DNA from: Ophelia neglecta
Taxonomy: Eukaryota
DNA length: 64,000 nucleotides
NCBI GenBank assembly: GCA_965285935.1
Contig: OZ260663.1
Coordinates: 97,960,001-98,024,000, forward strand
Direction of reading: 5' to 3'
Part shown: positions 1 through 58,974 of the stretch, piece after piece
How the letters are laid out: each line of letters starts with the position of its first letter
How positions within the stretch are numbered: the stretch's first letter is position 1
The notes under the pieces: generated by a model
What the model was told of the DNA's origin: nothing
The model's input: the letters and a program-made list of their open reading frames with translations, nothing else
Databases searched by the model: none
Translations under genes and position numbers: made by a program

Positions 1-1424
1 GGCCCCCCATTGAACATGATGTGTTCAATGTCACCACGGTCAGACAATACTTCTTGGTGGATGGTGGATCTTGGTCTTCTATATACCATTGATAAAGTAT
101 TGGTGACCCGAGGTACTTCTTTTTTTTTCGCTAAAATGTTAAACCAAATTGAAGGTCAAAAATCACATTAATGTTTTCCTATATAGAGAAGGGTGAGTAA
201 TAAGAAATTCATAATGGCAAAAAAGGTAATTATACAACTATCGTACATTTAGAACAAAATAGATATACCGTCCTGGTTGGAAACTGAAGCCGACCAAGGG
301 GCAATAAGTACTGCTTGGCCGATGCAAAGGCTAACATGTCTGACCCGTTTTATACTGTGGTCACCTGTGATGATACCATGATCGGAAGATATGTAGTTTT
401 GGTGCAACATGCTTGGTCCCAGGCCGACCCACAATTGTGCCAGATCGTTGTTATTCCTACGACATCCATAGGTAAGTATTGAATCAAACTAATACCTATG
501 CTTGATAAGGCAATGTGAATTATTTAAAAAAAATATCCTCTGGTTTAACGAGCCGGGCTGGGTTTCGTAGACAGGATCCAAGCACCATGGTTGTAATGTA
601 AATTAGACTATTGGTCGAATAGCAACTTATGTTTATACAAGGTTCTAACTTTGTCGTAATAGGTTTCAATATTAATTAACAGTTCTTAGTGTTGAACTTA
701 ACCGTATCTACCATAATGCATTACCTCGAAATGTTTCGTTATACGCAATATTCAATAAAAGTATATATAGTGGCAAACAAGAAGTGTATTTTTAATATCA
801 TGTTTTGTTGTTTTGCGCTCAGGGGAAAGCAATGTCTTTAAAAGTAACACCATAGTTGTCTTGTGTGTCTCTGTGGTGGTGTTAACAGTAGCAGTCAGCA
901 GCGCCATATTTATCCTGATGTATGTTATTGATTTGTTGTATAACATTTTAATACGGCCCTACATAGACACTGTTATATAAGTTATATCCCACCCGTGTCT
1001 CATTTCATTTGGACCAGGTATAATTGCACTAACACAGATATATTGCTAGACACGGAAGCGATTACACTGTACAAATGGTCCTTTTTATGTTTCATTTAAA
1101 GCAGACGAAGAAGATTAGCCTCGAACATCAGGAATGCTGGACAGGAAGAAAGAGGCGGAGTGTCGCCTTTAAAACAAATGGAAGTGCGGATTCCACTTGC
1201 TGGTAGGACTTGGAATCCGAATTTGTCCTTTTGGTTATAATCAAATTATATCTTTTCTCTTTAACTATTTTCTTCTTCTTTGGGTGTGTACTAATTGTAA
1301 TGCAAACATTCATTATTTTATTCTGTATGTACCATGTACGTATATCATTGATGATCACGAGTAGACGATTAAGGTGCATTGCAACAGCGAATAATTATAT
1401 GGAAATATATAGCAGTGGAAATAA

Positions 1425-1823
1425 AATGAGGATATAACACAGGCAAACTCCAAAGTCCTTCGTGAATTAAAACAAGCCAGTAATGTAGAATCGGCTTGGG
1501 CGCGCAATGGAAAAGTTTTTGCTAAACAGAGTGGCAAAACCATTGTCGTGAAGCTCTCAAATGTTAAGCAAGTACTGGCTTACAATTCACCCTCGTCCTA
1601 CTCAGCTGCAGCATCTCGTGACAGTAGCGTGACTACACGTCAGATAAATGAGGAATCTTGTAATGGCGTAGCTAGACCCAAACTTACGGGACATGGAGTC
1701 AAACGTCCGCTCAACAAATCTCCGACCGACGACCAGACTAAACGTCCAAACAAACAGTCGACTCCGTCTAATCAGCCACAACTCGCCTCAGCCGCGAGTG
1801 ATCTGGAGATAAGCTTTGTCTGA
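1425..1823 (+). pseudogene. LINE ORF1 C-terminal remnant
   Basis: NEDITQANSKVLRELKQASNVESAWARNGKVFAK resembles the EDLT...AW..NGK motif of CR1/L2-type ORF1 proteins and is in frame with ORF 1548-1823. Confidence 0.65.
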
Positions 1824-2396
1824 TTGTCGATATCTGAACCCGGTACTCGCCACTTTGTGTTTCTATTGCATTAACGTTAGTCACATAGTTGTCTCACTTA
1901 TCCTGAATTAATATCAGCTTGCTTTTAGAAGGCTATGTATTTTTCGCTAGTTTATTATTTTGTATCATATTATGTTACATCGCTTGAAAAACTTTCAAGC
2001 TACTTAAAAGTTATATATGTTTCCGCACAACGATAACATTGTTACTCCGCTTCACTTGTCGCCCGAATGTTATTATGTTCTTCTACGTAATCTTTTCTTT
2101 ACTTCATAATAATTATTTAAGCATATCGCTTCCCCATCATCCATTATTCATTAGCAACTCTTTAAATTGTTACCAGGTAGTTGACAGCTATATTTGCTTG
2201 GCTACACCCAGGCTAGCATTGTGCATCCTTGAAAGCTTGCAGTTGATTTCCATCTTAGTAATTATGATTTGTGTTCACGTCTTAAAGAGATATGATCTGC
2301 ATTGCACAGTATCGTGTAGCTATTGGCTTATTTTGTTTGAGCTAATCAAAATTATTCAGTGATGCTCTATTTTGGTTTGTTATATTCCCAGCTTTC

Positions 2397-3135
2397 ATGC
2401 TTACGCTGTTTATCGCGCCTGATTTATTACTTCAATGTGGGGACATTGAAGCCAATCCCGGCCCTGCCCGTCTGTCTGGCCTCACCTTTTCTTATATGAA
2501 AGTGCGCAGTTTACTTGCAACCGCTGTTGCTAACGGTGCCCAAAGTCATGACAAACTAACTCATCTAGCCGCATTTTCGTCACATTATAGACATGACATC
2601 ATTGCTGTTTCAGAAACCTGGCTAAACCCCAGCACCCCTAGCTCCTCTATCACCCTGCCTGGTTACTTGTCACCTATCCGCAAGGATAGAGACGGACCCG
2701 GCGGCGGCTTGGCAGTTTATCTATCTGAATCCTTCCCAGGAAAACGACTTGAAATTACTGAATCAAGCTCAATATGTAATATATGTATAAGTGCAAAGAT
2801 AAAAAACTACACCATCCTCCTTTGTTTCTACTACAGACCTCCGTCAGAGGACTGTTTACACTTCCTCGACGGTATTAATGATATCATTGACGCTTCTTTT
2901 GAAAATCATAATATTGTAGCCTTTATTGGAGACACAAACGCTAAAAACAGCCTCTGGTGTCCTTCAGACACAACTAATTCCGACGGTCGTGTCACAAATG
3001 CTTTCTTTGTAACAACGAGGTTTTAGTCAGCTCGTCCACGAGGCGACCCGAGGCGACAGTCATAGCGAGGCCTGCCTTGACCACATATTTATCAATTCTT
3101 GTGACCATATTATATCATGCGGTACCCTACCGCGT
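2397..3135 (+). pseudogene. LINE ORF2 N-terminus: 2A-like peptide followed by an apurinic-like endonuclease domain (frameshifted near 3020)
   Basis: LLLQCGDIEANPGP, then endonuclease motifs SETWL, YRPP and GDTNAK. The reading frame continues in another frame to DHIF...CDHFPI. Confidence 0.88.
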
Positions 3136-4944
3136 TTGGTTGATAACTGCGACCATTTTCCAATTTATGCAGAAATGTTTCGCAACGTCAGTAAACATAG
3201 TGCTTTTAAACGTCAAGTGTGGGACTTTAAGAACGGTAATGTTGAACTCTACCGTGACTTGCTATATTCTGCCCCATGGGATATTGTTCTCTCGCTTCCT
3301 GATATTGACGACGTTACTGTAAATTTTACTAATGTATTATATCAAAATGCCGAACATAGCTTTCCCCACCGCTTAGTAACTATTAGACCAAGGGATAAGC
3401 CTTGGATGAATTCAACTATTAGACATGCCATGGTTGTTAGGGATCGTTTATTCAGATCAAAACATATTAGTAGTCAACACCTGAATGGCTATAAACAGGC
3501 GCGGAACAGCGCTACTGCCCTTATTCGTGAAGCTAAAACTAATTATGACAAATCTTCTGATGAGGTGGCACTTAGCAATAATATATCATCTCCAAACTGG
3601 AGGAGACTTATGAAAACAATCCTCAAGACACGTTCCCCTTGCTCTTCACCCGCCTTGCATATGGGCGATGACATAATTTGTGATCCTTCTGAAAAGGCCA
3701 ACCTATTTAATGACTTTTTTATTCAACAATCTACTGTCGAGGGGAATGATGACATCTTGCCCAACGATACTCACACTTTCCATGCTCAAGCCCCGTCTAT
3801 TGAGAATAAAGTAATTTCACCAGCTGAGGTATATAACGTTTTAAAATCACTTGACACTTCCAAAGCTACAGGGCCAGACCAAATCGGAAACTTTCTACTC
3901 CGGGAGGCTGCACTTCCCCTTTCTGAACCACTTGCCTTGCTGTTTAATGCATCCTTGGTTCAATGTAAGTTTCCCCAAGCTTGGAAACAAGCTGATGTTA
4001 TTCCTCTCCACAAGAAAGACAGTGTTCATCTTTGTAATAATGATCGGCCAATATCACTATTGCCCTGTTTATCCAAAGTTTTTGAGCGTCTTATATTCGA
4101 TCACTTGTTTAGACACTTGAAAAATTATAATGTTTTGGTGCCTAATCAGTCTGGTTTTATTCCTGGTGACTCTACTGTTAATCAGCTACTTGATATCTGT
4201 GATAAACTATTTTCTGCTTTAGACTCTGGAGATGAAGTCATAGGAGTTTTTATAGACTTCACTAAGGCTTTTGATAAAGTTTGGCATAGGGGTCTACTCT
4301 ATAAACTTGGCAGATCAGGGATTACTGGCGATATCTTGGCGTGGGTGGAGGACTATCTGACAGGCAGACGCCAGCGTGTGGTCCTTCCTGGTGGCGCCTC
4401 GTCCTTTAAATGTGTTCCTGCTGGTGTCCCACAAGGCTCTGTTCTGGGCCCACTACTATTTCTTGTATATATAAATGATATCATCCAGGGCATCTCCAGT
4501 TCTACTTACTTGTTTGCCGACGACACTTCAATTTTTAAGAGATTTTCTCTAGATAATTTACAAATTGCCATTGATTGTTTAAACCACGATCTTTCTTTAA
4601 TATACAGTTGGTGCAACAAGTGGAAATTATCAATCAGCGTTCCTAAAACACGAGTTGTTCTCTTTAGCAGGAAGCGCAGGCCTACGCCGCCTGCGCTTAA
4701 CTTATTTATAGGAAACTCACCAGTGGTTGGCGTGTCCTCTCACAAACACCTAGGTGTCATAATTTCTAATACTTTGTCTTGGGAGAGTCATATTTTATGT
4801 ATTACTGAGAAAGCTTCCCAACGTCTAAATGTTCTAAAATCTGTTAAGTATAAAATGTCTAGAAGGGGCCTCGATGCAGCTTACAAATCGTTTGTAAGAC
4901 CAATTCTTGAATATGGTCCATACTGTTTGATAGTCTCCCTTTAG
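3136..4944 (+). CDS. LINE ORF2 reverse transcriptase domain (part of a disrupted ORF2)
   Basis: 602-aa ORF with the full set of non-LTR RT motifs, including YLFADDT. Confidence 0.9.
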   Translation: MVDNCDHFPIYAEMFRNVSKHSAFKRQVWDFKNGNVELYRDLLYSAPWDIVLSLPDIDDVTVNFTNVLYQNAEHSFPHRLVTIRPRDKPWMNSTIRHAMVVRDRLFRSKHISSQHLNGYKQARNSATALIREAKTNYDKSSDEVALSNNISSPNWRRLMKTILKTRSPCSSPALHMGDDIICDPSEKANLFNDFFIQQSTVEGNDDILPNDTHTFHAQAPSIENKVISPAEVYNVLKSLDTSKATGPDQIGNFLLREAALPLSEPLALLFNASLVQCKFPQAWKQADVIPLHKKDSVHLCNNDRPISLLPCLSKVFERLIFDHLFRHLKNYNVLVPNQSGFIPGDSTVNQLLDICDKLFSALDSGDEVIGVFIDFTKAFDKVWHRGLLYKLGRSGITGDILAWVEDYLTGRRQRVVLPGGASSFKCVPAGVPQGSVLGPLLFLVYINDIIQGISSSTYLFADDTSIFKRFSLDNLQIAIDCLNHDLSLIYSWCNKWKLSISVPKTRVVLFSRKRRPTPPALNLFIGNSPVVGVSSHKHLGVIISNTLSWESHILCITEKASQRLNVLKSVKYKMSRRGLDAAYKSFVRPILEYGPYCLIVSL

Positions 4945-5675
4945 ATTTAACTAAAGCCCTTGAAAATCTAAATCTGGCCGCTGCACGCCTCGTATCTGGG
5001 GCCAGACGTGGCACTTCTCATGAACCTCTTTTGCAGGAAGTCGGATGGGAGTCACTTGCATCCCGCCGCAGAGTTGCTAGACTCGTTAAATTTTTCGATG
5101 TTTACACTAACGGCACTCCTCTCTATCTTAGCAACAATATTCCTTTGGTCACTCGCCATTCCTATGGCACCAGGAGACTTGCAGAAAACTGTATCCCTCC
5201 ACCCTTCTGTAGGACGGAACAGTATATATCCTCATATTTTCCCCAAACTATACGGGAATGGAACAGTCTTCCTCGTGAAACTCGACAAGCACGCAGCAAG
5301 ATTATATTTATATCCCTTCTGAAAAGCAAACCTGATAGGCCACCGAAATATTTTTCAATGGGCTCACGTAAGAGTCAAATTTTCTTAAGCCAGTGTCGTC
5401 TTGCTTGCAGTTGCTTGAATTTCCATCTTTACAACAATCACTGTGTTGTATCGCCACTTTGTCAATGTGGTTTAGAGGCTGAAACACCCCAACACTACTT
5501 CTTTTCTTGCGCAAATTACTCCACACATCGCGTTCATCTTGTTGATTTCCTATCAGAACAGTCTGTGCCTCCAGAGGACTACCTGTACACCGTTCTAAAT
5601 TGTGATATTTCTTATATTCTAACAGAGCTGGCTGGTCTAGTTAGTGAGTATATAGATAAAACCACTCGATTCTAA
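4945..5675 (+). pseudogene. LINE ORF2 C-terminal region (frameshifted continuation)
   Basis: EVGWESLASRR, SYFPQTIREWNSLP and a C-terminal Cys/His motif, typical of CR1-group ORF2 tails. Confidence 0.82.
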
Positions 5676-6800
5676 ATTTTGACCGACTTGGTTCAGTTAT
5701 TGATCCTACGTCATGTTTACTTTTGTTTGCTTTTGCCATTTGTGTCGGTCATCTATTTGTGTCCTGGTGCCTGTGTTCCGGCCGCTCCGTCACATCATGT
5801 CTCATGGTGTGGCGGTGCGGTGGGAGCCGGGCACCACCTATCATCCTGATTATTGGTCACTGATCATGTATGCATGTTTGTACTCCCTTACAACTTCTGT
5901 ATTATATAGCTAAACTACTTGCTACTCTGGATAACGTTCATAAATATTGTATGCAATTAAAATACGTTCCTATATGTATGGGTTTATATTTTAAGACATG
6001 TTTGAATGTATTTGCGTATGTACACACGGATGCTCAATATTGCAATATTCATCACTGTGTTGCTATGCCAACTACAACTACAATAATGTTTATCTAAAAC
6101 TCATCCAATCATCATCATCGTCATCATCATCATATTCGTCATCGCATGCCCGTATTTACTTGTTTATATGATTACTTTGGTAATTACACCCGATAAGCCA
6201 TTGGCTTTTTGTAAAAACCAAATTGTAAATAAATATGTTTAAACCAAAATGATATGTTTTTAACAGACCTGGTGAAAGGAACAATTCGGTATAATTCAAC
6301 AATACATCTCGCTTTCCCCCCGACACAGGTCCTGCGGTCGTAGAGACTGAAGCATCATCCGCAGGCGATTTCAATATCTATGAGAGCACATGTAAAACTG
6401 GCACAGAATACGGTATGTTTTGTTATTTACATATTAATTAGTGTATATATCACCCATGGTCATGATAGCAAACTTGTTTGGTAGCAATATTTGCAGTATA
6501 ACATAAATTATATATGATGTCACTATTTTCTGTACACTTTGCAGAAAATGTCAACCCTGAAAATCCTTATAAAGAGCTTAAAGGTGACAATAACACAACT
6601 CTACATGACTACAACGACTACATGGAAATATATATCTAACAATTCCAAGACAGTTATTTAGGAAATTGTTCATTGAACAAATGTCCAAGTACTATGATAA
6701 CATATGGATAACTTCATACGTTGCGAATCATTTGTTTGGTGTTGCATCGATCCTAGGCTGCGTTAGAGAGCTTAACAGTCCTTTCGATTTATTTTGTTGA

Positions 6801-8483
6801 ATGATATTTGTATATGAACGTTACAATAAATTCTACGATGGCCAATCGGGATTTAGGGCCGGTTTCTCAACAACAGACAACATCTTTATGTTGTATCAAT
6901 TGGTGAGAAAAACATTGTCGAGCGGAAATAAACTATTTGTATGCTTCTTGGATTTTCGCAAAGCGTTCGATAGCGTCATTCATCTTAATATGTGGTACAA
7001 GGTTGCCCGACTTGGGATAACGGGCAAATTGCTCGATCTGCTGAGGGACATGTATAGAGAAGTCAAGTCAGTTGTGAGGGGTTTCTCCGGGGAGTGTAGT
7101 GACCCTTTCGTATGTGTGACTGGAGTAAGGCAAGGGGAGTCTCTCTCGCCGTTTCTGTTTGGATGTCTAATCGAGGATTTTGATGAATATTTAAGACAAA
7201 AAACATCATTGTCAGGTACTGAATGGAACACTCTCAGCATAATGCTACTCGCGTACGCCGATGACTGTGCGGCCCTGGCCGGTTCAGAGGATGACATGCG
7301 GTCTATTCTCAGGGGCGTGGCCGAGTACTGTAGTCTCTGGGGGCTGTGTATTAATTATGAAAAAAGTGAAATTATGGTATTCACCAGATCATCTCGTTAT
7401 AGGGACTATTCTTTCAGCATGGATGGCCACAAAATTAAATGTGTGAAAAGTTTCAGTTTTCTAGGAATACGGTTCTTTTTAAATGGAGGCTGGAAGAGAA
7501 GTTTGGAAACGTTGGCTCGTCAGGGCGAGAAGGCAGTCTTCAAATTGTCCTGCCTTCAGAGGCGACTGTACCAAAATCCGGTGGATCGTGTGAAGGACTT
7601 TGAAACTCTGGTGCTCCCTATTCTGCTGTACGGGGCTGGCGCCTGGGGATGCCACACGAACTTGGAACCGGTTGAGCGCATCTATAATTCCTTCATGAAG
7701 TCTGTGCTCGGAGTTAAACGTTCAACTGCCGGATATATGTGGCAAATGGAGTTGGGTGTCCTCCCTTTCAGGGCACTGGCCATTCAAAGAGTTCTGTCTT
7801 TCTGGTCGGGTCTGGTTGACCCCAGCCGAACTCGACCAAGGTTAGCAGCTCTAGTTTACAGAGAAATGCTCAGTGAAGGTGATGACGCGTGGTGTGTCGC
7901 TGTACGTGACACTCTGTATGACTTGAATTTGCACAGTTACTGGAATAGTCAAGCTGTTTATAATAGACGATCTTTTATGAACAGGGTGAAGAACTGTTTG
8001 ATTGACTCGTATTCCCGGATAAATCGTCAGAAGTGCCTGGACTCCAGTAAATGCTATCTGTACAAGCATCTGATTACTCCACTGGAATATAAAAAGCCGG
8101 CTTGGTATTTACAAGCTGTCGACCAAAGAAATGTGAAGACAATTGCCCGTTTGAGGATGAGAACGCACAGATTAAATTGTGAAACAGGTGATTGGTATGA
8201 AGTGGACTGGGAACTAAGGAGGTGTACAACTTGTGATTTGATCGAAACCGAGGCGCATGTCTTGATGTCTTGTGTACGTTACTCACACATCCGCGAGAAG
8301 TATATTCCACGAGAGGTTAGAGCAATGGACCTAACCGAAAATGAAAAGCTCGTCTATCTATTACTGAGTGACAATCGTAAATGGTTGGATAATTTGGCTC
8401 TCGCTTTTTCATGGATAACAAAACTACATTCGGAGTATGCCGAATACTATGTGCCAATACCTTTAAATGACTTTGAAGATTAA
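6801..8483 (+). CDS. Reverse transcriptase plus C-terminal CCHC-like domain of a 5'-truncated RTE-X-like LINE
   Basis: Uninterrupted 560-aa ORF: QSGFRAGFSTTD, DFRKAFD, GVRQGESLSP, YADD, ELG, RRCTTCDLIETEAHVLMSC. Confidence 0.88.
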   Translation: MIFVYERYNKFYDGQSGFRAGFSTTDNIFMLYQLVRKTLSSGNKLFVCFLDFRKAFDSVIHLNMWYKVARLGITGKLLDLLRDMYREVKSVVRGFSGECSDPFVCVTGVRQGESLSPFLFGCLIEDFDEYLRQKTSLSGTEWNTLSIMLLAYADDCAALAGSEDDMRSILRGVAEYCSLWGLCINYEKSEIMVFTRSSRYRDYSFSMDGHKIKCVKSFSFLGIRFFLNGGWKRSLETLARQGEKAVFKLSCLQRRLYQNPVDRVKDFETLVLPILLYGAGAWGCHTNLEPVERIYNSFMKSVLGVKRSTAGYMWQMELGVLPFRALAIQRVLSFWSGLVDPSRTRPRLAALVYREMLSEGDDAWCVAVRDTLYDLNLHSYWNSQAVYNRRSFMNRVKNCLIDSYSRINRQKCLDSSKCYLYKHLITPLEYKKPAWYLQAVDQRNVKTIARLRMRTHRLNCETGDWYEVDWELRRCTTCDLIETEAHVLMSCVRYSHIREKYIPREVRAMDLTENEKLVYLLLSDNRKWLDNLALAFSWITKLHSEYAEYYVPIPLNDFED

Positions 8484-8640
8484 CTGTGACTTTTAACGAT
8501 TTCTGTGACAAAGAATGGTTATGAGTAATTTTGTTTTTCCTTGGATCACGCATGCATAATTTTTTCTATAATGTATATATTATTATTGCAGGTTATAAGC
8601 TTGTTGTATGGCTTGAAGACCTAATAAATACTACTACTAT
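6820..8640 (+). mobile_element. 5'-truncated non-LTR retrotransposon (RTE-X-like; clade assignment tentative)
   Basis: RT ORF begins mid-domain; 3' UTR ends in AATAAA followed by a (CTA)n tail at ~8623-8640. Confidence 0.85.
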
Positions 8641-15110: not shown

Positions 15111-18100
15111 TTAGCTGAATATGGTATCTTATTAATTTATTGTATGCTGATTCGCTTAATAACATTTTATTTTGTAGGTCTCGCGGTTCATCAAAAACAA
15201 ATATTTCTTCATCCTATGTGAAATTATTTATTCCTTCATTAATTATAATGAGATTATGTTAGATTTAGGAGATCAAAAGGAGATTAGGTTAGGTAACTAA
15301 ATAATTATAACAGACCTTTATTGAATAGGCTATTGTTTGGCGCCGGGAATGAACCGGGAATTATATCTACCTCTATAAAATTAGAATTATAAGTACATGA
15401 TTATAATTAAACATAGCCCTTGTTACTGATGAGGAATAATTTCATTTATGGGTCTACTTTACTACCATTTTTATCTCTTTATTTTGGTTACTATGTCTCG
15501 CATTATTTTCTTTTGGTCACACAGGTGTGTATATTCTGTGATGAATATAGTCACTCTCTTCTTGTACGGTACATACGTACTCTCTTCTTGTACGTACATA
15601 TTCGCCCACAACGCAGCGCTGAATACAGGGGCCATGAAGTGCTTGCTATCACAACCATCACGGTTCACCGCCTCTTGTGCATGGATAACGTAGACTATTC
15701 ATTCATGGCCTGTGTCTGAAAAAGTGATTTGTAATATAGACATGCAACAGGGCCACCTTAACAAGTAGCGAAACACGCGCTGTCATTGAATGTGGGCGTC
15801 GTGGGTCCCCTTAAAACAGGGGAGCCTCCGTGCCATGTTGGCTAAGATTTTACTTTCGTCACAACGTCGGGCGTCAAAGAGCCAACGTACTTAATGTTTT
15901 TGTAATGCATAACCTCGTATCTCGTGCTAAAAAATTCGAACGATTCGCGGCTTTATTCGAATCTTTTTAACCCATTGGTATTCCTTTTTTATTTCAAACA
16001 TGCGTACTCGTGTTGCCTTAACGTCTACATGATCTGACCTAAAATGCTGCATAGGCACAAAAACGGTTAAAAAGAATAAATAAATGAGGAAGTAAAGGTA
16101 GCATAAAAATGCAGCAATTCGCCATGTTGACTTGTGGCTAAAGGGCTGGGACCAGGTAAAATGGCGGCTACGTTTATGATACACGTCTTTCTTGTGATTT
16201 CGTTAAGCATTTCAGTCAGCAGTTCAGGTATTTATTGTGACAGATAATATTTCTGTGTCGATTTGAATATTATTATTTATTTGAATCGGTATTCTATCCC
16301 GGAGGTAAACCAATAATGAGATATATTTATTGCAAAAAATGAATATCTTTATGCACAGATCCCTGTCGATACGGGCACGGCCTTACATGTGCGTTTACGT
16401 GTCGTTGTGACAGCGGTTGTAACACAGACACAGGAAATTGTCTGCACGGTACAGCGTGTCAGAAATGGAGCCCGGGTTCTGTTATGTGGCGCGGCTCAGG
16501 TTGTAGAATAGGTAGGTATAGTAGCTATGAATTCTCGAATGGGGCATAATTTGCCTATGAGGGCACAATGGGGTGGGGTGGAGGGGGTTCGGAGTAGTTA
16601 ACTAAAGAGTGGCTAAGCGAGAGGATTTTTTATGTATTTGCTTCGCCATTTGTCACACGTTTTCGTTAACTCATAAGTTGCAGCGGAGTTATATCTGACG
16701 TACTTCGTGTGTTAGTTATTTGACGAAAATAGTCACAGTGCCATTCATATTCTACCTATTAGGAAACGTGGCAAGGTCAAAAACAGCCTATCAGAGTTGG
16801 ACACGGGAGGATTATGGTCCTGATCGTGCAGTTGATGGACATGTCGGAAACTCACTGTCAGACGGAAAGTGTTCATTTATAGACCCATACCAAGGCATTG
16901 TCTTGTGGATGGTGGATCTTGGACACATGTACCTTATATCCAGTGTTTTTATATATAGTGAAAAAGGAAAAAGTAAGTAAGAATAACGAGACCTTGCATA
17001 TTTAATCAATGTTTCAAATGATAAACCATCATTTTGATTAGATAGACAAGTACATGTAGCGGTAGCAACTAATGGCTATTAAAAGTTAACAAAGACAGAA
17101 AAAAAGCACCTAGATGCGGTATCTTCCCCATACATGTTTATATTTTTATGGGTGTGCGAGACGAATATACATGTACCTACATCAATGCAAGGAAAACATT
17201 TATTGATTAATCTTACTAAAGAATCATCAACTAGTATTTCTTAAAGAAGAAACCTTATTTAAACGAATATGAATGAAGTATTAAATAAACATGCATTTAC
17301 TCTAATATAATATTTTTAGGTAAACTGAACGATTACCGTATTCTTGTTGGTAATTCTACACAAATAAACGAAAATACAGTGGAGTGTGGAACAAGCGGAA
17401 CCGCGGACCACACTTACACAGACTACGACATAGTAACCTGTTACCCCGACAAACTTTTTGTGGGAAAGACAGTTGCCTTCAAAAGCAATGCCATTTCCGG
17501 CGTTATCTTATGTGAACTGGTTGTCATTGGACGGCGATATATAGGTTTGAAAAGCTATTGCATATTTTGTCTGTTGTTTGTTTGTTTCTTGTAATCAATT
17601 TAGTGTACATGTATTTGTGGACAGATTGTTCTCTCTGCCCGACTTCCAGTACCTGTAATGAGTACGATGGATGTAGCCTGTGTCCAGAAGGCTTTCTGCT
17701 ACCAGACTGCAAAGTTAATTGGAGTTTTACTCTACACTTATTTGTGACTATACCAATTCTAGTCGTGTTTGCTGTAAACAGCGTCTTATAAAAGGTACAC
17801 AAGTTGCAAGCGGTTCGAAAAATAGTGTTGAGGGGATCTGTTTTGAAGTCGTCGAGATGTATGAAGCCTTTGTTTATCAGAATGTATGCCTGGTCTGGGA
17901 GGGAATGACTGCTGTAGCACACACTGTGAGAACCTCGCCTGTGTTAGGGAGACAGGCGTGTGTACTGACGGTTGTTCATATGATGACGAAGGGTTTTTGT
18001 GGGTTGGCCAGATGTGCGAAGAGGGGTTACGTAAGTATGAGCTATTGATATATCACTTTTTTGAGGGACAAGAATGTCTATGAAAGTGTACTTATGTTTT

Positions 18101-18114
18101 TTTTAATCTTACAG

Positions 18115-18477
18115 CCATCATGCGATTTGGGTCAGGCGACACCGTGGACAGAAATCCAGTGGAAGTCACAGCTTACTGTGTGACATGGCGCTGGAAGGAG
18201 GCGTTGAACGTATCAGAACATGCGACACCCCACGTAGGCTACCGGATTTATAACCGTCCATTGTACAGCAGTAACTGGAAGCTGGGAGTTGACATACCAT
18301 ACAGTAAGACCGAGTGGCAACAAGGGACGGTTAGCAATTTAAGTTCAAACACTGATTACGAGTTTGACCTGGAAGCGTATCGAAAGAAATCTGATGGAAC
18401 TAGGGTCTTGGGTGACACGTCCTACATCGAATCAGGTTATCCCACCTGGAACCTGCCACTTAGAAGTAAAACATTAG
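18115..18477 (+). CDS. Fibronectin type III-like exon of copy B
   Basis: VTW...GYRIY...W...TVSNLSSNTDYEFDLEAY pattern, with phase-1 splice sites on both sides. Confidence 0.75.
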
Positions 18478-20099
18478 GTATGGAATATATTCTTTATTAT
18501 AATCCGGATATGTTTTGCATTCATACACCTCTTCCATTTCTTGTTGACTCTCAATCTATATGAGTCATTCACTTATTATTCCTACTATTTTCTTTAAGTG
18601 GCGCCAACCTCTCAGTTTCGAACCTCATCCATCATAACCAGTATGAAAACCAAAGGTTTATGTTCCTCTGACATCTCCAAGACGACTGAACTTCCATCAT
18701 TATCAAATAGTGAATCCACTTCAAACACAAATCCTCGATCAACTGTTTCGACTAATCTAAACCCGCCAAGCATTGACGGTCCACAAAATGTAGGGCCAAA
18801 AACGGAACTTATAGCTGGAGTAACTGTTGGGATTTTAGTTATTTTGATAATAGCTGGAGCCATTATTGTCTTCCTGGTCAGGTATGTTCAAATGTTTAAC
18901 AAAAGTGAAAAACTTATGACGAATTCAATTTGGTTACAATGAACAACATTTAACTGTCATTCCTCTCACCAATGACCAAAGAAAAAACAGGAAAGGAAGA
19001 TGCGAGTTATTAGAAAAAAAAGAGAGAATTTCTTTGAAAGGAGACCAACATACACAAATGGATTCAGGCGAAAGTAAGTTAAAACTTCGAACTTACTAAG
19101 TTTTCGTACATCTACGAACATGTGAAATGAATATATGCTAAAAAATTGAATTTCGCAGTCTAGAAAGTGGGTCATGTGATTGGATGTTTTTATAATTTCG
19201 GTTAAAATTGAAATAGCACATTGGCTGACACCTCGTGACGTTCGTTAACTATCCGTATACCACGGTTTGAATTCGTACCTGAAATGTTTGTCAACTTGGA
19301 CAGCGATGCATAAGATCATTAGCATAAAAACAAACACGAGAAGTTAGGTGTAAACGAGTTGTGCATCTATATAAATAGTTGAAAACTTAAAGCCGATGGC
19401 CGCAGCTTAGACATGAACCATATCGATAGTGATGGTATCTACTAGGTAAAGCGTTGTGGCCCTTTAGGCCTGGGCCAACAGTTAATGCATAAAATGAATA
19501 TCTGTTGGTGTGATGATAGTATGCCGCTGTATATAATAATACAGTTTTGGATCATCAAATTTTGAATTGAGCGGCAATGATAAGAGGTCACATAAATGTA
19601 TGAAATGCATATCCGTTCACACTGTGGTTCAGTATTTTACAAAATATGACAATTTATTGGGTCACGATACGGGTTTCTCCTATGCTCGCGATTATTTTAA
19701 TGTTAGAAACGATTTCACCTTATCGGCTTCGTTAACAAAATAGGTACACGTGAGAACAAAGTTATGATGCTTTTGGAAATGTGGGCATGCTCGGCGTCAG
19801 GGACGGGATTGATTGCGGAAGTTAGGGTAGGTGCTGCTTCTCGGGGCTCTTTGTATTTAGGGTTCAGCACGGGCCTGGGTTAGGTTAGGGTCGGTATATA
19901 TAACTTGTTTAGGGTTAGGTCAGGGTTTGGATCAGGGTAAGTAATGTAATAGGGCTTAGGGAAATGCAATGATTATCCCTTTAAAGTTAGCGCCAAAGTA
20001 GAAAATATGCTTTGCATATTGCATTATTGAACCATGAACACTCATGAGATTGATTCTCCTAGTCTGAGTTTGCCCATAGTTATAGTTCTCACACAACTG

Positions 20100-21350
20100 G
20101 TTTAAATTAAGATTTCCTCAGACACAGAGGCAAGAGATGATGATTGAACATCTGAATTAAATTCACACTTATCAACATATTTCAGCTTTCTGTAAGCTAT
20201 ATCTTTCGATTCATTCTTAGGTTTGCCTACATCTAGAGACAGGTGAACAGCAAAGTAGTCTGACATTGGACATGACACATTTAAATTGCGGATGATATTG
20301 TCCACTGACCTTGAGCATACCAAACCTAGAACATGACCATTTATATGAGTAGGTTCAGCATTCAATTGAATATAATTGCAAGATACTAACAGAACTGTTC
20401 TAGCACTTTCTAGCACTACTGTCCTCACTGCCTCCAACATGGAAGTTATATCCGCCAGCTAGAATAATCTTCCCAGGAGCCGCGGCAATATATTCTAATG
20501 GAGCACCAAACGCCTGAAGAATACTGTAATATTATTTTTAGTCGATGTTGGAGCACTGGACACAATGATACGGATCAATGAAGCAGATTTAAAAAGAAAA
20601 TCAAGTAATTCTAATGATGCATGAGCGTCTTTTTTTCTGACTCCATCTTTATGACCATATCTACACCTCCGACACACCCCGCCAAACGTGGTTGGTGGCA
20701 AATAGCATAGCAGGCTGGCACAATATTTCCTATAGTAACTGCGTCAACATCTTTTGCACGAGACCAACAACAAAGTCGTGAACATTGGTGACAGTAAAGT
20801 CATTGACAAGTCTTTACAGATCATGAGTTAAAGATGCACATAGAGTGTTTTAGGATTGCCAATAACAAACGTAGTTTTTGTACTGGCACACGATTTATAT
20901 TAACATTATTTGAATGTTTTGAATTGAAAGGATTATCCACAGCCTGTGTAATTTCAATGGACTCCGCTGCTTCAATGCTCTTGGCCCACAAGCGACTGGA
21001 AATTCTGCCTTGCCTCCCTTAACGTCTAGCTCCTATCCTCTGTAGATCTGGGCCTCCCTAATGTTGTCTGTCACATTGATTTACTGCTAAGCAGGTCCCT
21101 GTTGACACTGACCAGCTGTTCGCGCGCATATTGTAAGGTCATTCCCCAGGTCGTTTAGCATGACGCTTAACCCATGATACAGTTTTTATTGTACACACTA
21201 GTTTACTGGTCTTCCCGGTTTCCACTGGAGTGTTTGCAATCCCGGAAAGTTGTCAGGCAGGTCACCAGCAAAAAACAATGGCAGCATAGCTGGCAGGGAT
21301 TACCCAAGTGTCAAAAATCTTTAAACTTTAGCAAATATGACCGATTTTAC
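20100..21350 (-). mobile_element. Degraded L2-clade LINE 5'/endonuclease fragment in an intron of copy B
   Basis: EPTHINGHVLGLV...MSDYFAVHLSL...YRKLK matches the endonuclease C-terminal SDH region; many stops; the 5' boundary is approximate. Confidence 0.7.
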
Positions 21351-24300
21351 CCAAAAACGCACACAAAATCTTCTACATCAATCCAAACTTGACAGAACTT
21401 GTTCATCCAAAAAATGAATCAGGTGTGTTGATTCACATTCTTAGCGAGTTACTATTTACATTCACTTGGTGTCATGTGTCATATGGTGAATATCATGTCT
21501 AGAATTGAAAGAAAAAAAACGAAAAAAACATCCTGTTAGAAATTCTTCAAGACAGATATGGCATTTTGACATCTCAATTTTAGCAGTTTCTAAAACTCTA
21601 TCATTGTGATTTCTTGGCAACCAAATTCGCGATTTTCTATGATACAAAACAACACCATAACGCGACACTTAGTGCCTTTGTTCCGATCTGCGCTATTCTC
21701 CTTTGACCTCAGAAGTTACTATATAATCCGGCCCATCACCCCAAATATTCCGACTGATAGTTGGACGGATGAACAGCCTGAAGTACTGACTAATATATGG
21801 TAAAATATAGTCGATGTTCATGCTAATGTGTAACATTTAATTGGTAATTGCATTATGTCTCTGCAATATGTCGCAAAAGCCCACAAAGTACGTTTTAACA
21901 GATGAACCAACGGGCGTACCAGAAGTAATGGCAATGACGTATTAATTAATTAGAATTACTAGATCTAGCTTATTAGCAGCCGGTTAATTCCTAAGCGCTT
22001 CATAGTCCCACTTTACTCGGTCATAGCGTGCAATGCCCCGTCACAAGTTGCCAACTTATCGTACAATTGAATTTGAAATTGTGTAACCAAGCTTTCCCAT
22101 CACACGGTCCAGTAAGCTACGCCTGCTTGCAAACCGACATCCGGTCTTATAAATTTCCTGTTCACAGTTTATTTAAATCAATGGATTTTGTCTATAAAAA
22201 TTGCCGCTTGTTAATATTGTAAAGAATTACTGACCTTCGTTAGTTACAACCGCTCGGCGCGTATCCAGTCGAGTACCAACGCCTAAAACTTATTAACGAT
22301 TCATTTAAACGGACATGCACTGAATTTATCGTTTCACAATTTAAATTGATATGCAAAATTCACCCATCGAAGACGATAATGAACTAATTGAAGACAACAA
22401 ACAAGATCAAGTCTCTGAAGAAATAGCAAATGGCCTGATAAGAGACGAAGCATTATATGTCAACATAAGATCATCCCAGAGTGTGGAAGGAAACAACATC
22501 AGGCTAGATGAGTTAAAGTCTGTTATTGACACCCTGACTGTTGAAGATGGATTCAAAGATGAATTTAATGTTCGTTATGCTCACATCTCCTACCATTTTT
22601 ACTACATATTTACTCAACTAATTTCGTCTATAACGAGTGTTTAGATAAATTGAATGTCATTCCTATTGCAGTTGTTACCTAATGAGGAGTTGCTTGACTG
22701 TGTGGCGGCTAGTCTTCCAGAGAACAATATACGAAACAGATTTAAGAATATAAAAGCATGTGAGACAAAGAAAATCATTAACCAGGAATAGTCCATTCAA
22801 ATAGAATTCCTAAGAAACCGCCTGCAACAGGCCTAAAAACAAACTTAAGCCTGAGAGTTGTATCCTCTACATTTCCAAAATTATATCTGTCTTGTAAATT
22901 ATTTTCCTTATTGTGAATGTTTTATTCTTCCAGATGATTCAACTCGTGTTGTTCTGGACGTGGATAAAGAACACTGTGAATCCGATTATATTAATGCCAA
23001 TTATATTACTGCAAGGTTAAATACGTCTTTCACTGCCGACATAATCACTTATGATTATTAATCACTTTTTTATTAATACATTTAATATATAAGATTCGAA
23101 ACTGTGCCTATTGTGTTACAGGGCTATAAAGGAAAAAAGAAGACATATGTGGCCACTCAAGGTGTGACGCAAAACGTGTACTAAAATGTATCCTATGCAA
23201 TTACTAGCTTATTCTTCGATACATACGGTACTAGCTATTTGCAAACAATGCTGTTAACTATTTCTAGTTATATTCTCCTGAAATACGATTTATGTTTACT
23301 GTCAGCCCCAAATGAACATACTACAAAAGACTTTTGGAGAATGATTTGGCAAGTCAAAACAAATAGGATCGTCATGGTTACAAGAACATTTGAAAACTGC
23401 AAGGTGAGTCGTTCATTTAAATTTAATTATCTTTGCCTACAGATTTATGTGTGAACACCTTATTGGAGTGCATAATGCCTTGTTTTTGTCAGTTTTAGTA
23501 TTCATACTTTTCAGACCAAAAGCCACCAGTATTGGTCGGAGAATGTCGGGGAAACAAAGCAGTATGATGAACTCTGTATCAAAACTATGAAGAGAGATAC
23601 ATTTACAGATTATGCCGTTTGCTTACTCAAGATAACAAAAGGGGTAGGTTATGTACTAAACAATACTAGCATACCAGTGTAACGCAAAAGTTTGTGTTGA
23701 ACTGAGCTTGGTGTCAACCAAAAATGAAATTCTAGAAGAGAGGAAAAATTAACAGATAAATCAGCCCACAAATGAAACCCCCTTATTGGCGTTAGCATTA
23801 CCAGTTGATAAGAGTGTTACATATATAAATGTTCCTTACTAGAGATACAACAAGTCCAATGGTAAACAAATCATTGCTTAGCTCTTAGTATTCTGTAAAT
23901 TTAGGAGGAGTCCCGCACTGTGCGCCATTTCCAGTTCTTACAATGGCTTGACAAGATGCCTCCGGACCAAGCCTACCCACTTCTCGCCTTTAGGAGGACT
24001 GTCAGGTTATCTGATACTGTTAGCGAGGGACCCATGATAGTGCATTGCAGGTATTGGACCCAACATTATTTAGATTGTCAGGTTTTTTTTCAATTCTGTA
24101 GTCACAAGTTATTACTTTTTCTTGAACAGCGCTGGTATAGGATGCACAGGAACCTTTATTGCCCTGGATTATCTGCTGCATCAGGCAGAGTCAGAGTCTC
24201 AAATCGATGTTGTCACCCTTGTCAAACGACTGCGGGCTGAACGGATGAAAATGATCCAGACCTTGGTATACCTTTAGATCACAATACTGGATTACTTTTC

Positions 24301-27300
24301 TGGGTATTAATAGCATTCGAGAATTACTGCAGGAATGATATTTCTATTTTATAACAGAACTAATTAAGGCTGCTGGTTTGTTTAACAATGGTGAAGTTTA
24401 TCTATTTCATTAATTTGTTAAAACGAATTCAACGCTTCAGGACCAGTATATATTCGTGTACACTGCCATCTTAGAAGCCGTAACCATTGGTAATACAGCT
24501 ATTTCCAACAAAGTCTTTGATGAACGTCTGGCTAAACTCACCACCAAAGACAAACATGGGTCATATACTCTTAAAGATCAGTTCACGGTAATGCTTGGTT
24601 TCAAATTTCTGCAATATCGATTTCAACTTTACATAACTATATAGCTCTGAACAATGTTGCTGCTCGAAAAAATTTCTAGTTTTATAGATTAAATCAAAAC
24701 CTTGACATGAAGTTAAACAATAACGTGTAGAATTTTTTTTTACATTGATAACTGTGACATCCTAAGAAGTACTTTATTTTCCTATTCGTAATTTAGTGAA
24801 AAACTATTTTTATGCTCTAATATAGATGTTGGAAGGATTGAAAATTACTAAAACAGAAACAAGTAATGAGGGACGAAGTCAAGAAAATGTAGATAAAAAT
24901 AGAACACAGGAAATAGTCCCTGGTAAATGCATTAGTTTTTAAATTTTACTCGTAGACAAGATGCGTTTATACAACATAGTGCTTTAAACGTATTTCATTA
25001 AAACATAATGTGCTGATTTCAATTACCCAAAGTATGCAAGGAGTTGCTTACATATTTTTCAGAAGACAGGATGAGGCCAAAGTTGATTTCTTCGAGGACA
25101 CATACCAACACCTACATCAACGCCGTATTTGTCGACGTAGGAAATCTACTTATAAATAAACCAAATACATATAAATGAGTCATTAAAATATCATAAATAT
25201 CGGTGAAAAAAATATATTGGTAAAATCTAAGATTCACCAGATATGGCCAATAAGCCTTTTTTTCTTGATAGGGCTTCCGAAGTGAACATGAAATGATCGC
25301 TACCCAGATGCCTCTTTCTAACACCGTGGAGGATTTCTGGAGACTGATTTACCAATTCAGACGTACTACTATCGTCATGCTCGATCCCCTGGACAGCAAG
25401 GTCGAGGTAGAGATAACGGTTATATTAAAATTTAAATATATTACCATTTTGCCGCAAAAGATACTAGAAGCATATTTATTTTGATCGTATGCCACACATT
25501 TTCAGAACTGTTTGATCTACTGGCCAGACAAACAGCAACCTATACAAACATATTGAGATATCGAGATAAAGTTCGTATCATCGAATAAACGAGGATGCAT
25601 TCTGACGAGAGATTTCCAGGTTGCAAAACCAAGAATGGTATGAACACCTTAAAGACTGCTACTTGATAAATATATAGCTATATTCATCTTAAAGCTTATT
25701 TTGGCAATGACTCTTTCAATTCGCCCTCCTTCACAGAGACGTGAAGAGCCAATGGCCGTCAAGCAATTCCAGTTGTTGGATTGGCCGACTGGAGATGAAC
25801 TTCCTACGATTGGCTCCCTGCTTGACCTTGTTGTCAAAGTTGCTCAGCACGGTGGTGAGACGGAGAACAGTTCAGTTCTTGTTCATTGCATGTGCGTAAT
25901 AGTCTTTTTTAATTAGTGATATATGATCTGTTAACCAGGCATTCACTCACGTTCCAACATGGCTGATAAAAAATCAAAGGCACAAATTATTGGAATCTTA
26001 ACTCGAACTTTGACATGACACTGTTTCAGGGATGGGGCTTCTCGTTCTGGACTTTTTTGTGCGGCTACTTACATCGTAGAGAAAATGAAGTCAGATAAGG
26101 AGGTAGACATCTTCTTAGCCGTCAGATATGTCTCCAGAGGGCGCCCTCAGTTTATTGGCTCCGTGGTAAGTCAACATAGTTACAACACATAACTAATACT
26201 TTGCATTAATACACTTTGTTTTACAAACATCAGGAAATATACGCAAAAACTTGTAAAAACGCAATTAAACTTTTGACGGTACCGAATGCAATCATACTGT
26301 CTAGTTTCTTCTTCAAACAGAAGCAGTTTTCATTTCTTTACGACTTGGCGAAGGAATACATTAAATCACAGGGTGACTACAATAATATGTGAACCATGAC
26401 CCCGCAAACCACATCACCATTTATTATATCTTAGTATTCGGGTCACTTGTTTTGTTACAATCATTCGTTTTGCGACTTTTGGGGAGTACCAATGGATCAT
26501 TCGGTCACGGATAATAAGCATTAGTAGATTATCAGAGCGGCACAATTCAGAGGGGTTTCGGTTTTGGGCAGGAGTTGCTTATCACTTCACACATTGTTCA
26601 TAGGCAGGATTATATTATTAGCCTTAAGCTGGTCTCCAATCAATTAAGAGTGTTTGATCCGGGATGGTGGAGATAGTGGTGGACATTCGAATGTAGGAAA
26701 AAGAAGAGGAGTTGGTTAAAAGTTGGAGTGGAAGATACTCGACAACATTTATATCCCGTGACCGGGGATATTTTGCCGCTTACTTGCTCTATAATAATGG
26801 GCTAATAGGGCCAGTCGGATATGTTTCATACTGCTGACCAACAACCACTTTTCTTTCCTCCAAAGCTGATTGCAATTAAAAGGCAGTGGTAAGGTGGGAT
26901 AAGTGGGGCTACTTTCAGCTGTTCATATGGGAATTTAACATGGGAATGATGTTTTAAAAGCCCTTACTTAGTGCTTGTTGAAGTGATCAAAACAAAACTT
27001 TCAGGGATGACTAACATTTTAGAGGGCTTTCCATATAGGTAAATTTCACATTTGTGTGATAGCTACAGGTTTCGCAATGAACATGGAACCGCTGCTGATC
27101 TAGCCCCACATTCAAGTGCAGACTATTGGTATGCAGTGCTGTCACCTCCTTGCTCATCCCCGACTGACCCCATTGGCTTACCGTGGAGCATTTTATAGTG
27201 GTTATTTTGCATCATTATTATTCAGTATATAGTGTTTCATGCTTATAATGTTGGGACTATTTGATTCGGCAGACGTGGCTTAAAAAGCCAATTTATTATT

Positions 27301-28029: not shown

Positions 28030-30545
28030 GTAAATCAAAAGCAGAGATGGGATCATAACCTAAGGGAAGAGTTTGTAGCCCATATTTCTAGTGAAAAATT
28101 TTTAAACTTGTGCAGAAAGGTCTCAAACCTAGAAATTAGTGTGGATGTCATAGCACAGGATCTATCTGACTTGTATATTGATAGTGCTAAGCATGTTTTT
28201 CCTGTTAAAAACAAAGCCACCTTGGTACACAAACCAAGAAATTTTGCTATTAATTTTAATAATGATCCAACCTATAGTAGAGCAAAAAGGGAGTATAATA
28301 GAGCTAAGAACAGTTATAAGAAACATAAATCGGCTTGTCTAGACACAGAGGTTAGAAGGACGAGTAGAACTCTTAAGAAGGCTAGGGTCAAACACCAGCG
28401 GGAATTGCACTCTAAATGGAAGAAACTCAGGAGTAGTAACTGTAAACTTTATTGGAATTTGATCAATAACAGAAAGAATAACAATGTCCAGTCGAGCCTG
28501 GGTGATTTACTTACACATTTTAGAGAATTAAATACCCAGCCAAATATTAGCAGTGACAACCCCGATATTGACCAAACACACTCCCACCCCAGTTATAACT
28601 TTGACATATTGAATCTGTCAATCTCAAAAGACGAGATCAGGAAATGTATCAAGAAATTGAAAAATGGTAAGGCATGTGGCCCCGATTTAATTATTAATGA
28701 TTTTATTAAAACAGCAGACCTGCCAATGCTAGATCTATACGAAACATTGTTTAACAGGATACTTAACACAGGTGTAATCCCAAGTATCTGGTCAGAGGGC
28801 CTTATTGTTCCTATTTTTTTTAAAAGAAGGGTAGTAGCAAAGATGCTAACAACTATAGAGGTATAACACTACTGTCTTGTGTTGTCAAGCTTTTCACAAC
28901 CATTCTTAATGAAAGACTATATAAATTTTTAGAGGATAAAAAGTTATTAAATGAGAACCAGACCGGGTTTAGAAAAGGTTATAGCACTAATGATCATGTC
29001 TTTGTTCTAAACTGTGTCCTTGAAAAATTTCTTTCACAAGGAAAAAGAAGGTATTGCGCATTTATAGATTATCAGAAAGCTTTCGACACTGTGTGGAGAG
29101 AAGGCTTATGGTTTAAATCGGACTTCCAGGGTATTTGTACTGACACCAAAATCATTAAAGTTATCAGAAGTCTGTATAACAATGTCAAATCATGTGTATT
29201 AGTTAATTTGTCCCCACTGCTCTTTTCTATTTATCTTAATGACCTAGAGCAATACTTGATTAACTCTGGTAACACTGGTGTAAACTTCGACCCTCAAGGT
29301 TTAATTAGGTTGCTTGTATTGATGCATTCTGACGACACAGCTGTTCTGGCTGATACACCGGGCAGGCTTCAGAAAGGTTTAAATGTCTTAGACAATTATT
29401 GTAGAAAGTGGAATTTGACTGTAAATATATAAAAAACCAAAGTGGTCGTATTCAGCAAATCAAAAATTAAAAATTTACACTTCTATTATCAAAAAGAAGA
29501 ACTAGAAATTGTATACGAATTTAAATATTTAGGCATTATTTTTAAATTTAACGGAAGGTTTGATGCTTGCAAGAAACATTTAGTGGAACAAGCCTGTAAA
29601 GCCACAATGCAATTGTTAAATAGAGCCAATGCCCTGTCTATAGCAATAGATATGTTATGTGATCTATATGATAAAATTATACTGCCAATATTAACATACA
29701 GTTGTGAAGTATGGGGTTATGATAACAATGATATTATTGAGGCTGAACACCTACGATTTTGTAAAAACATATTGAAGGTCAGGCGCTCTACCTGTAATAG
29801 CATGGTATATGGGGAACTAGGAAGGTATCCCTTGGATATTGTAATTAAATCCAGAATTGTGGGTTTCTGGGGTCGTATTGTACAAGGTATAGAGAGCAAA
29901 TTGAGCCATCAGACGTGTCACTATTTATATAATAAGTTCATTGAAGGTACTCGGCCAAGTCCTTGGCTACAGTGCTTAAAGAAAATACTTGATGACACTG
30001 GTAATAGTATGTTTTTTAACTTTAATATGGTTTTTAACCCTGTTTGGTTGAAGTTAAAGGTAGGGAGATCCCTGTCGCAGCAGTTTGAGCTAAAGTGGCA
30101 TGCAGATGTCCACTCACTACCTGTCTGTAATACATATAGAGTCTTTAAAACACAATTTAAGATGTCAGAATATTTATGTAGAACCTCTGCAGATTTGGCA
30201 ACTCATCTATGTAAATTTCGAGTCAGTAACTATACTTTGCCTATTGAAACTGAGAGACATAAAGCATTTGTTGTTCCAAGAAATGAAAGACTATGCACAT
30301 TCTGCAACTGTGTGAAAATGGGTGATGAATTCCATGTATTACTGGAGTGTGAGAATGCTAAAGTCAAGACACTTAGAGAAAGGTACCTCCCTAAATATTA
30401 TTATGAAAGACCAAATATGTTCAAACTTGGTTTATTATTACAAAAGGGAGATCCACAAATAAGGCTTGCAATATTTATTCAAAAAGCTGGTAGACGATGT
30501 GTATGATGTATCAGTCCCTATGCCCGGATGGCCTGTGTCTGAGGG
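28030..30545 (+). mobile_element. Decayed RTE-X-like LINE (5'-truncated, frameshifted, internal RT deletion)
   Basis: ORF pieces 28108-28866 (KACGPD), 29091-29432 (HSDD instead of YADD; GVRQGE segment missing) and 29442-30506 (YGELGRYP, RLCTFC...GDEFHVLLEC). The 3' UTR is cut before the tail. Confidence 0.88.
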
Positions 30546-33500: not shown

Positions 33501-33640
33501 CGCGATAATCCTAGTTCTTTTGGTAGCTTTACCCTTCAATAATGAAGTATGAACGAGAAATATACTGTACCTAGAACGGCGTCAGATGTCAAATACAGGC
33601 CAACAAGAGCGAGCAGAGAAGTGTGTATACCTTGAGCCAT
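30545..33640 (-). pseudogene. Copy C: truncated F-type lectin receptor (signal peptide, Cys-rich exon, FTLD, TM, partial cytoplasmic exon)
   Basis: Exons: 33571-33640 (MAQGIHTSLLALVGLYLTSDAVL); 32169-32312 (Cys-rich); 31538-31720 (FTLD part 1); ~31210-31394 (FTLD part 2, broken off before the last beta strand); 30782-30941 (stalk plus TM); ~30545-30645 (juxtamembrane, abutting the LINE). No PTP exons remain. Confidence 0.8.
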
Positions 33641-33653
33641 GTTCCCCTGGTTA

Positions 33654-33660
33654 TGACTCA
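33654..33660 (-). promoter_or_regulatory. AP-1 consensus (TGAGTCA) 13 nt upstream of the copy C ATG
   Basis: Exact consensus, conserved at the same position in copy E. Confidence 0.3.
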
Positions 33661-58768: not shown

Positions 58769-58974
58769 ACTGACTTGGTGTTACTGGTCCCATGAGTGGT
58801 TTGGCCGAATCTCGGTGTTTCGTTTGATACTAATTTCATTTCTGCCCCATGAGAACTGACGGACTAATGGTCAATTCTCGTCGCCGATATATTACCCCAA
58901 TTTCGATAAAAACGGCTGGTATCTCTGAACAGGGGGAGGGGGTTTTAATAGCCAATGTACGTGGCCTGGTACAT

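Follow-up and report, generated by a model that had tools for sequence, protein, structure and literature searches.

A conserved, predicted phosphotyrosine tail module apparently shuffled with receptor phosphatases in a lectin-receptor cluster of Ophelia neglecta

In vertebrates, paired receptors such as KIR, PILR, and Siglec-5/14 belong to the immunoglobulin (Ig) superfamily and combine related ectodomains with tails that carry either an immunoreceptor tyrosine-based motif for activation (ITAM or hemITAM) or one for inhibition (ITIM). Clustered, diversifying receptors in which related ectodomains are joined to alternative tails of tyrosine motifs are described for Hydractinia Alr and Botryllus FcoR (10.1101/2022.03.04.482883, PMC12065747), and we describe the same arrangement here. 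In the snail Biomphalaria, the SudRes1 and LG5R receptor clusters have been tied to parasite resistance by genome-wide association (PMC12297450, PMC13712769), and the LG5R receptors, termed "scavenger class F-like," include a subgroup 1C with two protein tyrosine phosphatase (PTP) domains and a subgroup 1B with a short tail (PMC13712769). The stretch analyzed here, which we call the window, is 64,000 nucleotides of Ophelia neglecta DNA (contig OZ260663.1, designated C5; C5:97960001-98024000); coordinates without a prefix refer to it, and copies A, B, C, and E are named after genes within it. Our subject is copy A, a lectin-like receptor gene that joins the front of a receptor PTP (RPTP) to a tail of tyrosine motifs. 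Based on sequence comparisons, we conclude that this tail is a real conserved module and that it has been shuffled with receptor phosphatases in a paired-receptor-like way.

The first-pass annotation of the window had proposed that copy A exchanged its phosphatase domains for this tail. The features of copy A and the elements inserted at it are as follows.

1..112, + strand: 3' part of copy A lectin exon 1, F-type-lectin-like (gene model; the exon-family profile matches fucolectins in PDB)
253..471, + strand: copy A lectin exon 2, with an in-frame TGA at 285-287 (open in 5/5 other A copies)
823..919, + strand: copy A transmembrane (TM) exon, E-type, derived from a PTP gene (similarity to gene E)
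1105..1202, + strand: copy A juxtamembrane (JM) exon, E-type, with a phase-1 end (gene model and similarity to gene E)
1262..1429, approximate, + strand: intron relic, left from the tail family's own TM exon (its end) and tail exon (5' half); holds an apparent NNYMEI at 1390-1407 (copy comparison)
1430..6245, + strand: young non-long terminal repeat retrotransposon (long interspersed nuclear element [LINE]; endonuclease and reverse transcriptase [RT]), with a 7-bp target-site duplication at 1423-1429 and 6246-6252
6329..6412, + strand: tail exon 1 of A, which corresponds to the 3' part of a longer exon in the tail family and stands behind a derived acceptor; encodes IYES and EY (predicted splicing)
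6545..6639, + strand: tail exon 2 of A, which completes YENV and continues with YKEL-x13-YMEI and the stop (reading frame and family comparison)
6817..8640, + strand: second RT-element insertion, 3' of the stop and private to the window copy (copy comparison)

Lectin exon 1 begins 71 bases 5' of the window, and the signal-peptide and Cys-rich exons lie further upstream. A profile of 24 first lectin exons matched FBP32 (5.8e-14), the eel lectin 1k12, and other fucolectin modules (5/5 matches), as expected for homology to the F-type fold; Pfam gave no match on the copy A TM, JM, and tail exons or on the second lectin exon fragment. As had been claimed, the TM and JM exons share homology with their counterparts in gene E (DNA local scores of 101.5 and 60.0, neither reached by any of 1,000 shuffles), and the TM exon shows no resemblance to that of copy B or copy C. 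The two tail exons have AG/GT ends in phase 1 and give NIYES, EY-ENV (joined across the splice), NPYKEL, and DYNDYMEI ahead of a stop, in agreement with the annotation. In all six A copies found in the genome, the tail exons follow the TM exons, and no PTP exon lies between the tail and the lectin exon of the next gene (for A3, up to where the fetched DNA ends), so that neither outcome named by the annotation as a refutation was obtained. A receptor PTP is marked by tandem PTP domains behind its TM segment; these are absent from 6/6 A copies and present in the neighbors B, D, and E. The proposed replacement of phosphatase domains by a tyrosine-motif tail behind a PTP-type front therefore holds, and it reaches wider than was proposed, with the tail found on 35 receptors. 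The annotation had also read NNYMEI (1390-1407) as part of an exon. We rejected this reading: the Tyr codon is lost in 4/6 A copies, and the region is an intron relic, the decayed 5' half of the ancestral tail exon.

The window copy of A is itself a pseudogene, with a TGA at codon 142 in its lectin exon and the young LINE in its intron. This LINE makes up the bulk of the interval 823-6639, is absent from 5/5 other A copies, and has copies that are 97 to 99% identical on other contigs. A genome search with the tail did recover intact paralogs: A2, A4, and A5, which make up three of the six, have uninterrupted reading frames of 321 to 323 amino acids. A1 and A3 carry stops, and in A6 a donor GT has become AT.

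The tail belongs to a larger family that is confined to one region. All 34 matches of the tail DNA search are at C5:96.56-98.66 Mb. Two open tail exons are present at 34 of the 35 sites examined, the exception being window copy C, whose tail exon is cut by a LINE. Every one of the 34 two-exon tails has open reading frames and frame-preserving exon lengths, and the splice sites between tail exons 1 and 2 are conserved in all of them; the 28 non-A genes have a longer tail exon 1 (182 to 206 nt, phase 2 to 1). The three Tyr columns are retained in 33, 33, and 34 of the 34 tails at a synonymous divergence (dS) of 0.24 to 0.58 across subfamilies, and because they are conserved across so diverged a family, the motifs go beyond what chance would give. 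The ratio of nonsynonymous to synonymous divergence (dN/dS) of the tail is 0.17 to 0.28 among the two-Tyr types G1, G2, and G3 and about 0.6 for A versus those. The predicted Grb2-docking motif of the annotation, YxN, is borne out in 33/34 tails; in A it would be formed only by the splice between tail exons 1 and 2. YxN is a described Grb2-binding motif (PMC4810170).

In a head-to-tail array of tail genes at C5:96.56-96.71 Mb, 15 genes stop just before the last Tyr motif, a relic of which is still readable past the stop. These genes seem to have in common a change to a tail with a single YxxL (hemITAM-like). As to where the module came from, 1.84 billion protein representatives contained no credible relative when searched with a tail exon 1 profile (two matches were judged spurious and repeat-driven). 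Derivation of the tail from the PTP "wedge" exon was considered and rejected, the similarity scores being within those of shuffles. A search of the ESM Atlas gave leads below 0.9 only. For the receptors themselves, queries with an FN3 exon and a PTP exon found no homologues of greater length at E ≤ 0.001, which is weak evidence.

The relationship between tail genes and PTP genes was examined in parts of C5:96.55-98.75 Mb around the tail and PTP matches (875,540 known bases including the window), and the counts that follow describe this biased, partial sample. PTP exons follow 35 of the 75 lectin anchors and the tail follows another 35; 5 were unassigned and excluded. One anchor with a tail and, further on, a separate PTP gene was assigned to the tail group, and several E-type genes were typed by their wedge exon, with matches to the D1 phosphatase exon just downstream. 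On a tree of the lectin exons, the tail/PTP label needs 10 changes, with at least 6 forced by the starred branches, and monophyly of the tail genes is rejected (approximately unbiased test, p-AU of 6e-41). One tail gene has lectin exons that are 97.2% identical to those of a PTP gene and 78% identical to those of the nearest tail gene. The cluster thus combines related ectodomains with differing intracellular modules, which is one of the marks of a paired receptor family (the other being a shared ligand with opposite signaling output); lectin identity to PTP genes is 88 to 91% for the array tail genes and 82 to 87% for the C-type genes, and for A the nearest PTP lectin (that of E) is at only 73 to 75%. 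The further idea of the annotation, that A was a partner and possibly a substrate of the PTP receptors, finds no support in this value for A and E.

The TM exons record how the tail came to sit behind PTP-type fronts. The TM exon of four tail genes is of the B-type PTP kind; in the six A genes, both the TM and the JM exon are E-type. The A intron retains a relic of the tail family's own TM end, and it aligns to that family's TM-to-tail region with scores above all 100 shuffles in 9/12 comparisons. Since PTP-type TM exons stand on tail genes and A still holds the relic of the family TM end, we conclude from these exon comparisons that the tail was grafted onto the fronts of PTP genes at least twice. 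In the non-A tail genes at C5:98.266, 98.289, and 96.684 Mb, the exons are open and bounded by AG/GT from the lectin domain through the tail.

We lean toward the view that the intact relatives of copy A are phosphorylated, signal-on partners of the neighboring receptor phosphatases and that copy A is a dead member of this six-copy front-plus-tail subfamily. The front of such a receptor (signal peptide, Cys-rich module, lectin-like domain, TM, and JM exon) would be joined to the Tyr tail, and ligand would cluster the receptor. A Src-family kinase would phosphorylate the YES, YxN, and YxxL/YxxI tyrosines, and Grb2-type, Src-type, or tandem SH2 proteins would dock on the phosphorylated tail. A PTP receptor seeing a similar ligand would join the same patch and strip the phosphates, and through recombination the binding specificities would be joined again and again to on or off tails. 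We infer these steps by analogy with Draper, Src42A, Shark, and Corkscrew (PMC4503800, PMC8092387). More tentatively, the whole cluster might be a paired system with an "off" receptor that has a built-in phosphatase, in which the portable two-exon phosphotyrosine tail was repeatedly grafted onto lectin RPTP fronts. This would possibly create, within an expansion of more than 100 PTP genes, matched on/off sensors for the same ligands, with co-expanded arrays of SHP2-like genes and Src-like kinases as readers together with Syk and Shark.

Candidate partners for tyrosine signaling are encoded elsewhere in the genome. A Syk-like SH2 is present (best match SYK, 3.8e-14), and a Shark-type kinase with ankyrin-like repeats, SH2, and kinase occupies one 695-amino-acid open frame at C8:29.35 Mb. 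C5 has a Src-family-like array (a cluster of SH2 matches at 3.28-3.61 and 4.36 Mb, of which the fetched stretch has Src-family-like SH2 and kinase exons). A tandem SHP2-like array at C2:96.40-96.66 Mb has about 8 N-SH2 and 11 C-SH2 matches, and in the fetched copies PTP exons (WPDHG) stand behind the SH2 pair. An array of SH2 genes within long open frames lies at C12:55.50-55.53 Mb; in sequence pattern they seem SOCS-like. Two adjacent SH2 exons about 1 kb apart at C8:14.985 Mb are presumably Csk-like.

Several observations weigh against a signal-on role for the A relatives and against pairing with the phosphatases, and the first set concerns the splice into the tail. The A acceptor scores -0.3 to -3.4, compared with 57 reference acceptors whose median score is 2.6 (0 to 14% of them score lower), and stronger AGs lie upstream of it in 5/6 copies. 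The reference sites were chosen by coordinate; a noisier matrix of automatically picked sites also ranked the A acceptor low. Three sequencing runs contain no splice joints, but they behave as DNA and so carry no weight on expression. Half of the A copies are broken, their exons vary as much as their introns, and within the A group the proportion of nonsynonymous differences (pN) is not below that of synonymous differences (pS) (0.051 versus 0.035), so that there is no purifying signal. All of this would fit an A subfamily that skips the tail, with the JM exon either splicing to an upstream AG or reading into the intron and stopping, which would make the A proteins tailless decoys or decaying chimeras and leave the tail family real.

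We consider tail skipping unlikely, and the sequence around the acceptor argues against it. Conservation switches at that point: before the acceptor, A is 53 to 57% identical to its relatives, with gaps and stops (shuffle baseline, 51%), where functional non-C genes are 63 to 79% identical and gap-free, whereas after the acceptor it is 74 to 80% identical and gap-free versus the G2, G3, and array genes. In the 28 non-A tail genes, the acceptor position falls in the middle of an exon; the pyrimidine count before it is 15/20 in A, up from 8 to 12/20 in these ancestral-type genes. The phase of A tail exon 1 matches the JM donor, and the 62 nt 5' of the acceptor contain only 2 variable positions among the six copies. 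In a simulation of neutral decay, the joint chance that the frame was kept with no stop and four Tyr was 0.004 to 0.08, depending on the assumed distance. The acceptor before 6329 is probably used, which would join the JM exon to the 84-nt tail exon.

A second set of adverse observations concerns the motifs. The ITAM consensus, Yxx[I/L]x6-9Yxx[L/I] (10.1101/2022.03.04.482883), is not fitted by any A copy, although two non-A genes (C5:98265728 and 98076292) have a spacing of x9. The annotation had placed YKEL and YMEI near ITAM spacing; the 13 residues it counted are indeed present in the window copy, but they include a private 9-nt insertion, and the other five A copies have x10. The strict form Yxx[LI]x6-8Yxx[LI] is fitted by 0/34 tails. 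Relaxed ITAM spacing is x6-12, and 10/34 tails fall within it, including 5/6 A copies and excluding the window copy. The last Tyr is retained in 11/34 tails and lost in 23/34 (15 by an earlier stop and 8 by a Tyr-to-Ser change), and comparisons with C-type tails give a dN/dS of 0.65 to 1.1. An ITIM-like or switch-motif-like pattern, [ILVST]xYxx[LVI], is fitted by 32/34 tails. The middle motif also fits the T-x-Y-x-x-V switch pattern, so the sign of the predicted signaling could go either way. Among the tandem-SH2 readers seen, the SHP2-like one is the most expanded, and this could point to inhibition.

These features raise the alternative of a tail that serves for inhibition or switching, in which the near-invariant site T-x-Y-x-N-V/I would recruit SHP2-like phosphatases and both tail and PTP receptors would damp signaling, one with a recruited and the other with a built-in enzyme. 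The fit of 32/34 tails, the SHP2-like array on C2, and the absence of the second Tyr of the ITAM-like pair from 23/34 tails are all consistent with this. We nevertheless find it improbable: the same site is the Grb2-binding YxN in 33/34 tails, purifying selection is strongest on tails with the full YxxL...YxxI pair, and Syk-like and Shark genes are present.

A third point is that recombination alone, without selection for pairing, would also yield the interleaving seen on the tree. The mixing of fronts and tails could then be what unequal crossing-over leaves behind in a tandem array with fast turnover, with tail receptors signaling alone (e.g., in adhesion or scavenging) and uncoupled from the PTP receptors. 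In this region, large blocks are indeed duplicated with identical copies, genes are broken, and LINEs have inserted, and for most tail genes the nearest ectodomain relative is another tail gene. Yet the grafts left the splice phase intact and the frames open, and each of the two ectodomain classes occurs with tails of either type, which makes a pure by-product quite improbable in our judgment.

Finally, the F-type lectin motifs for fucose, HX24RXDX4(R/K), and calcium, h2DGx (PMC5712786), bear on what the ligand of the A lectin domain may be. The A copies lack both: Ile or Met replaces the His, and there is no DG motif. Most B-type lectin domains keep AVDG, but the His and the R-x-D segment are mostly absent from them.

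The other receptor genes of the window that bear on the comparison are as follows.

16762..26393, + strand: copy B, a lectin-EGF-FN3-TM-PTP-PTP receptor, from lectin exon to stop (D1 has WLD and a P-loop Arg-to-Cys change)
30519..33654, approximate, - strand: copy C, the second tail-family gene, E-like in its ectodomain and with the TM native to the family; another LINE interrupts its tail exon
47737..56456, - strand: copy E, a lectin-EGF-TM-PTP-PTP receptor (D1 has WPD and HCSAGIGRTG); source type of the A TM and JM exons

The window is part of a very large expansion of receptor PTPs: a D1-exon query of the 762-Mb genome gave at least 150 scored matches (279 candidates), 148 of them on C5. 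Among the D1 exons sampled, WPD is present in 28/34 and GxGR(T/S)G in 34/35. In copy B D1 (23905-24266), WLD replaces WPD, as it does in 5/34 sampled D1 exons, and a P-loop Cys for Arg is found in B only; because of these two changes, copy B is probably catalytically dead. The KNRY phosphotyrosine-recognition loop is RNRF in copies E (51407-51575) and B (22672-22760), which may alter substrate preference. The PTP receptors carry a juxtamembrane YxN of their own (ALYVN) just before D1 (22450-22470 and 51880-51900). Further dense PTP-receptor clusters at C5:99-101, 103-105, and 110-113 Mb have no match to the tail described here, and they may have other short-tailed partners. A long low-complexity tandem repeat region lies 5' of gene E (58900-60900).

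Lectin/EGF receptor-PTP clusters map to snail parasite resistance, and the passages of PMC12297450 and PMC13712769 that describe them leave the phosphatase substrates and the short-tailed neighbors unexplained. The present cluster offers a testable answer, namely, that the short tails would be a conserved phosphotyrosine module and that ectodomains would be exchanged between tail and phosphatase genes. If true, this would be a different design for paired immune receptors and would supply candidate substrates for orphan invertebrate RPTPs. A survey of titles and abstract openings, with subscription papers outside its coverage, found no description of pairing between a PTP receptor and a Tyr-tail receptor.

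The Biomphalaria SudRes1 MEGF/galactose-binding RPTPs (PMC12297450) and LG5R subgroups 1B and 1C (PMC13712769) are, like the receptors described here, clustered single-pass proteins with EGF-like and fucolectin/galactose-binding domains; the likeness is one of domain architecture only. Their short tails are described as lacking identifiable signatures, the term "ITAM" is absent from both main texts, and the passages on these genes describe neither tail grafting nor pairing. The B. sudanica annotation has 17 MEGF/galactose-binding-domain RPTP genes, compared with the at least 150 D1-exon matches found here. Drosophila Draper is an EGF-type receptor with a Tyr tail that is written by Src42A, read by the Syk-family kinase Shark, and erased by the SHP2 homologue Corkscrew (PMC4503800, PMC8092387), and the same protein classes are encoded in this genome. 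However, Draper is one gene whose ITAM and ITIM tails are switched by splicing, whereas here the tails swap between genes and the counter-receptor has its own phosphatase; the likeness is at the level of protein class. Alr and FcoR are Ig-superfamily receptors that set ITAM or hemITAM against ITIM; in the cluster described here, an F-type-lectin-like ectodomain takes the place of the Ig domains, and a Tyr tail is set against tandem PTP domains.

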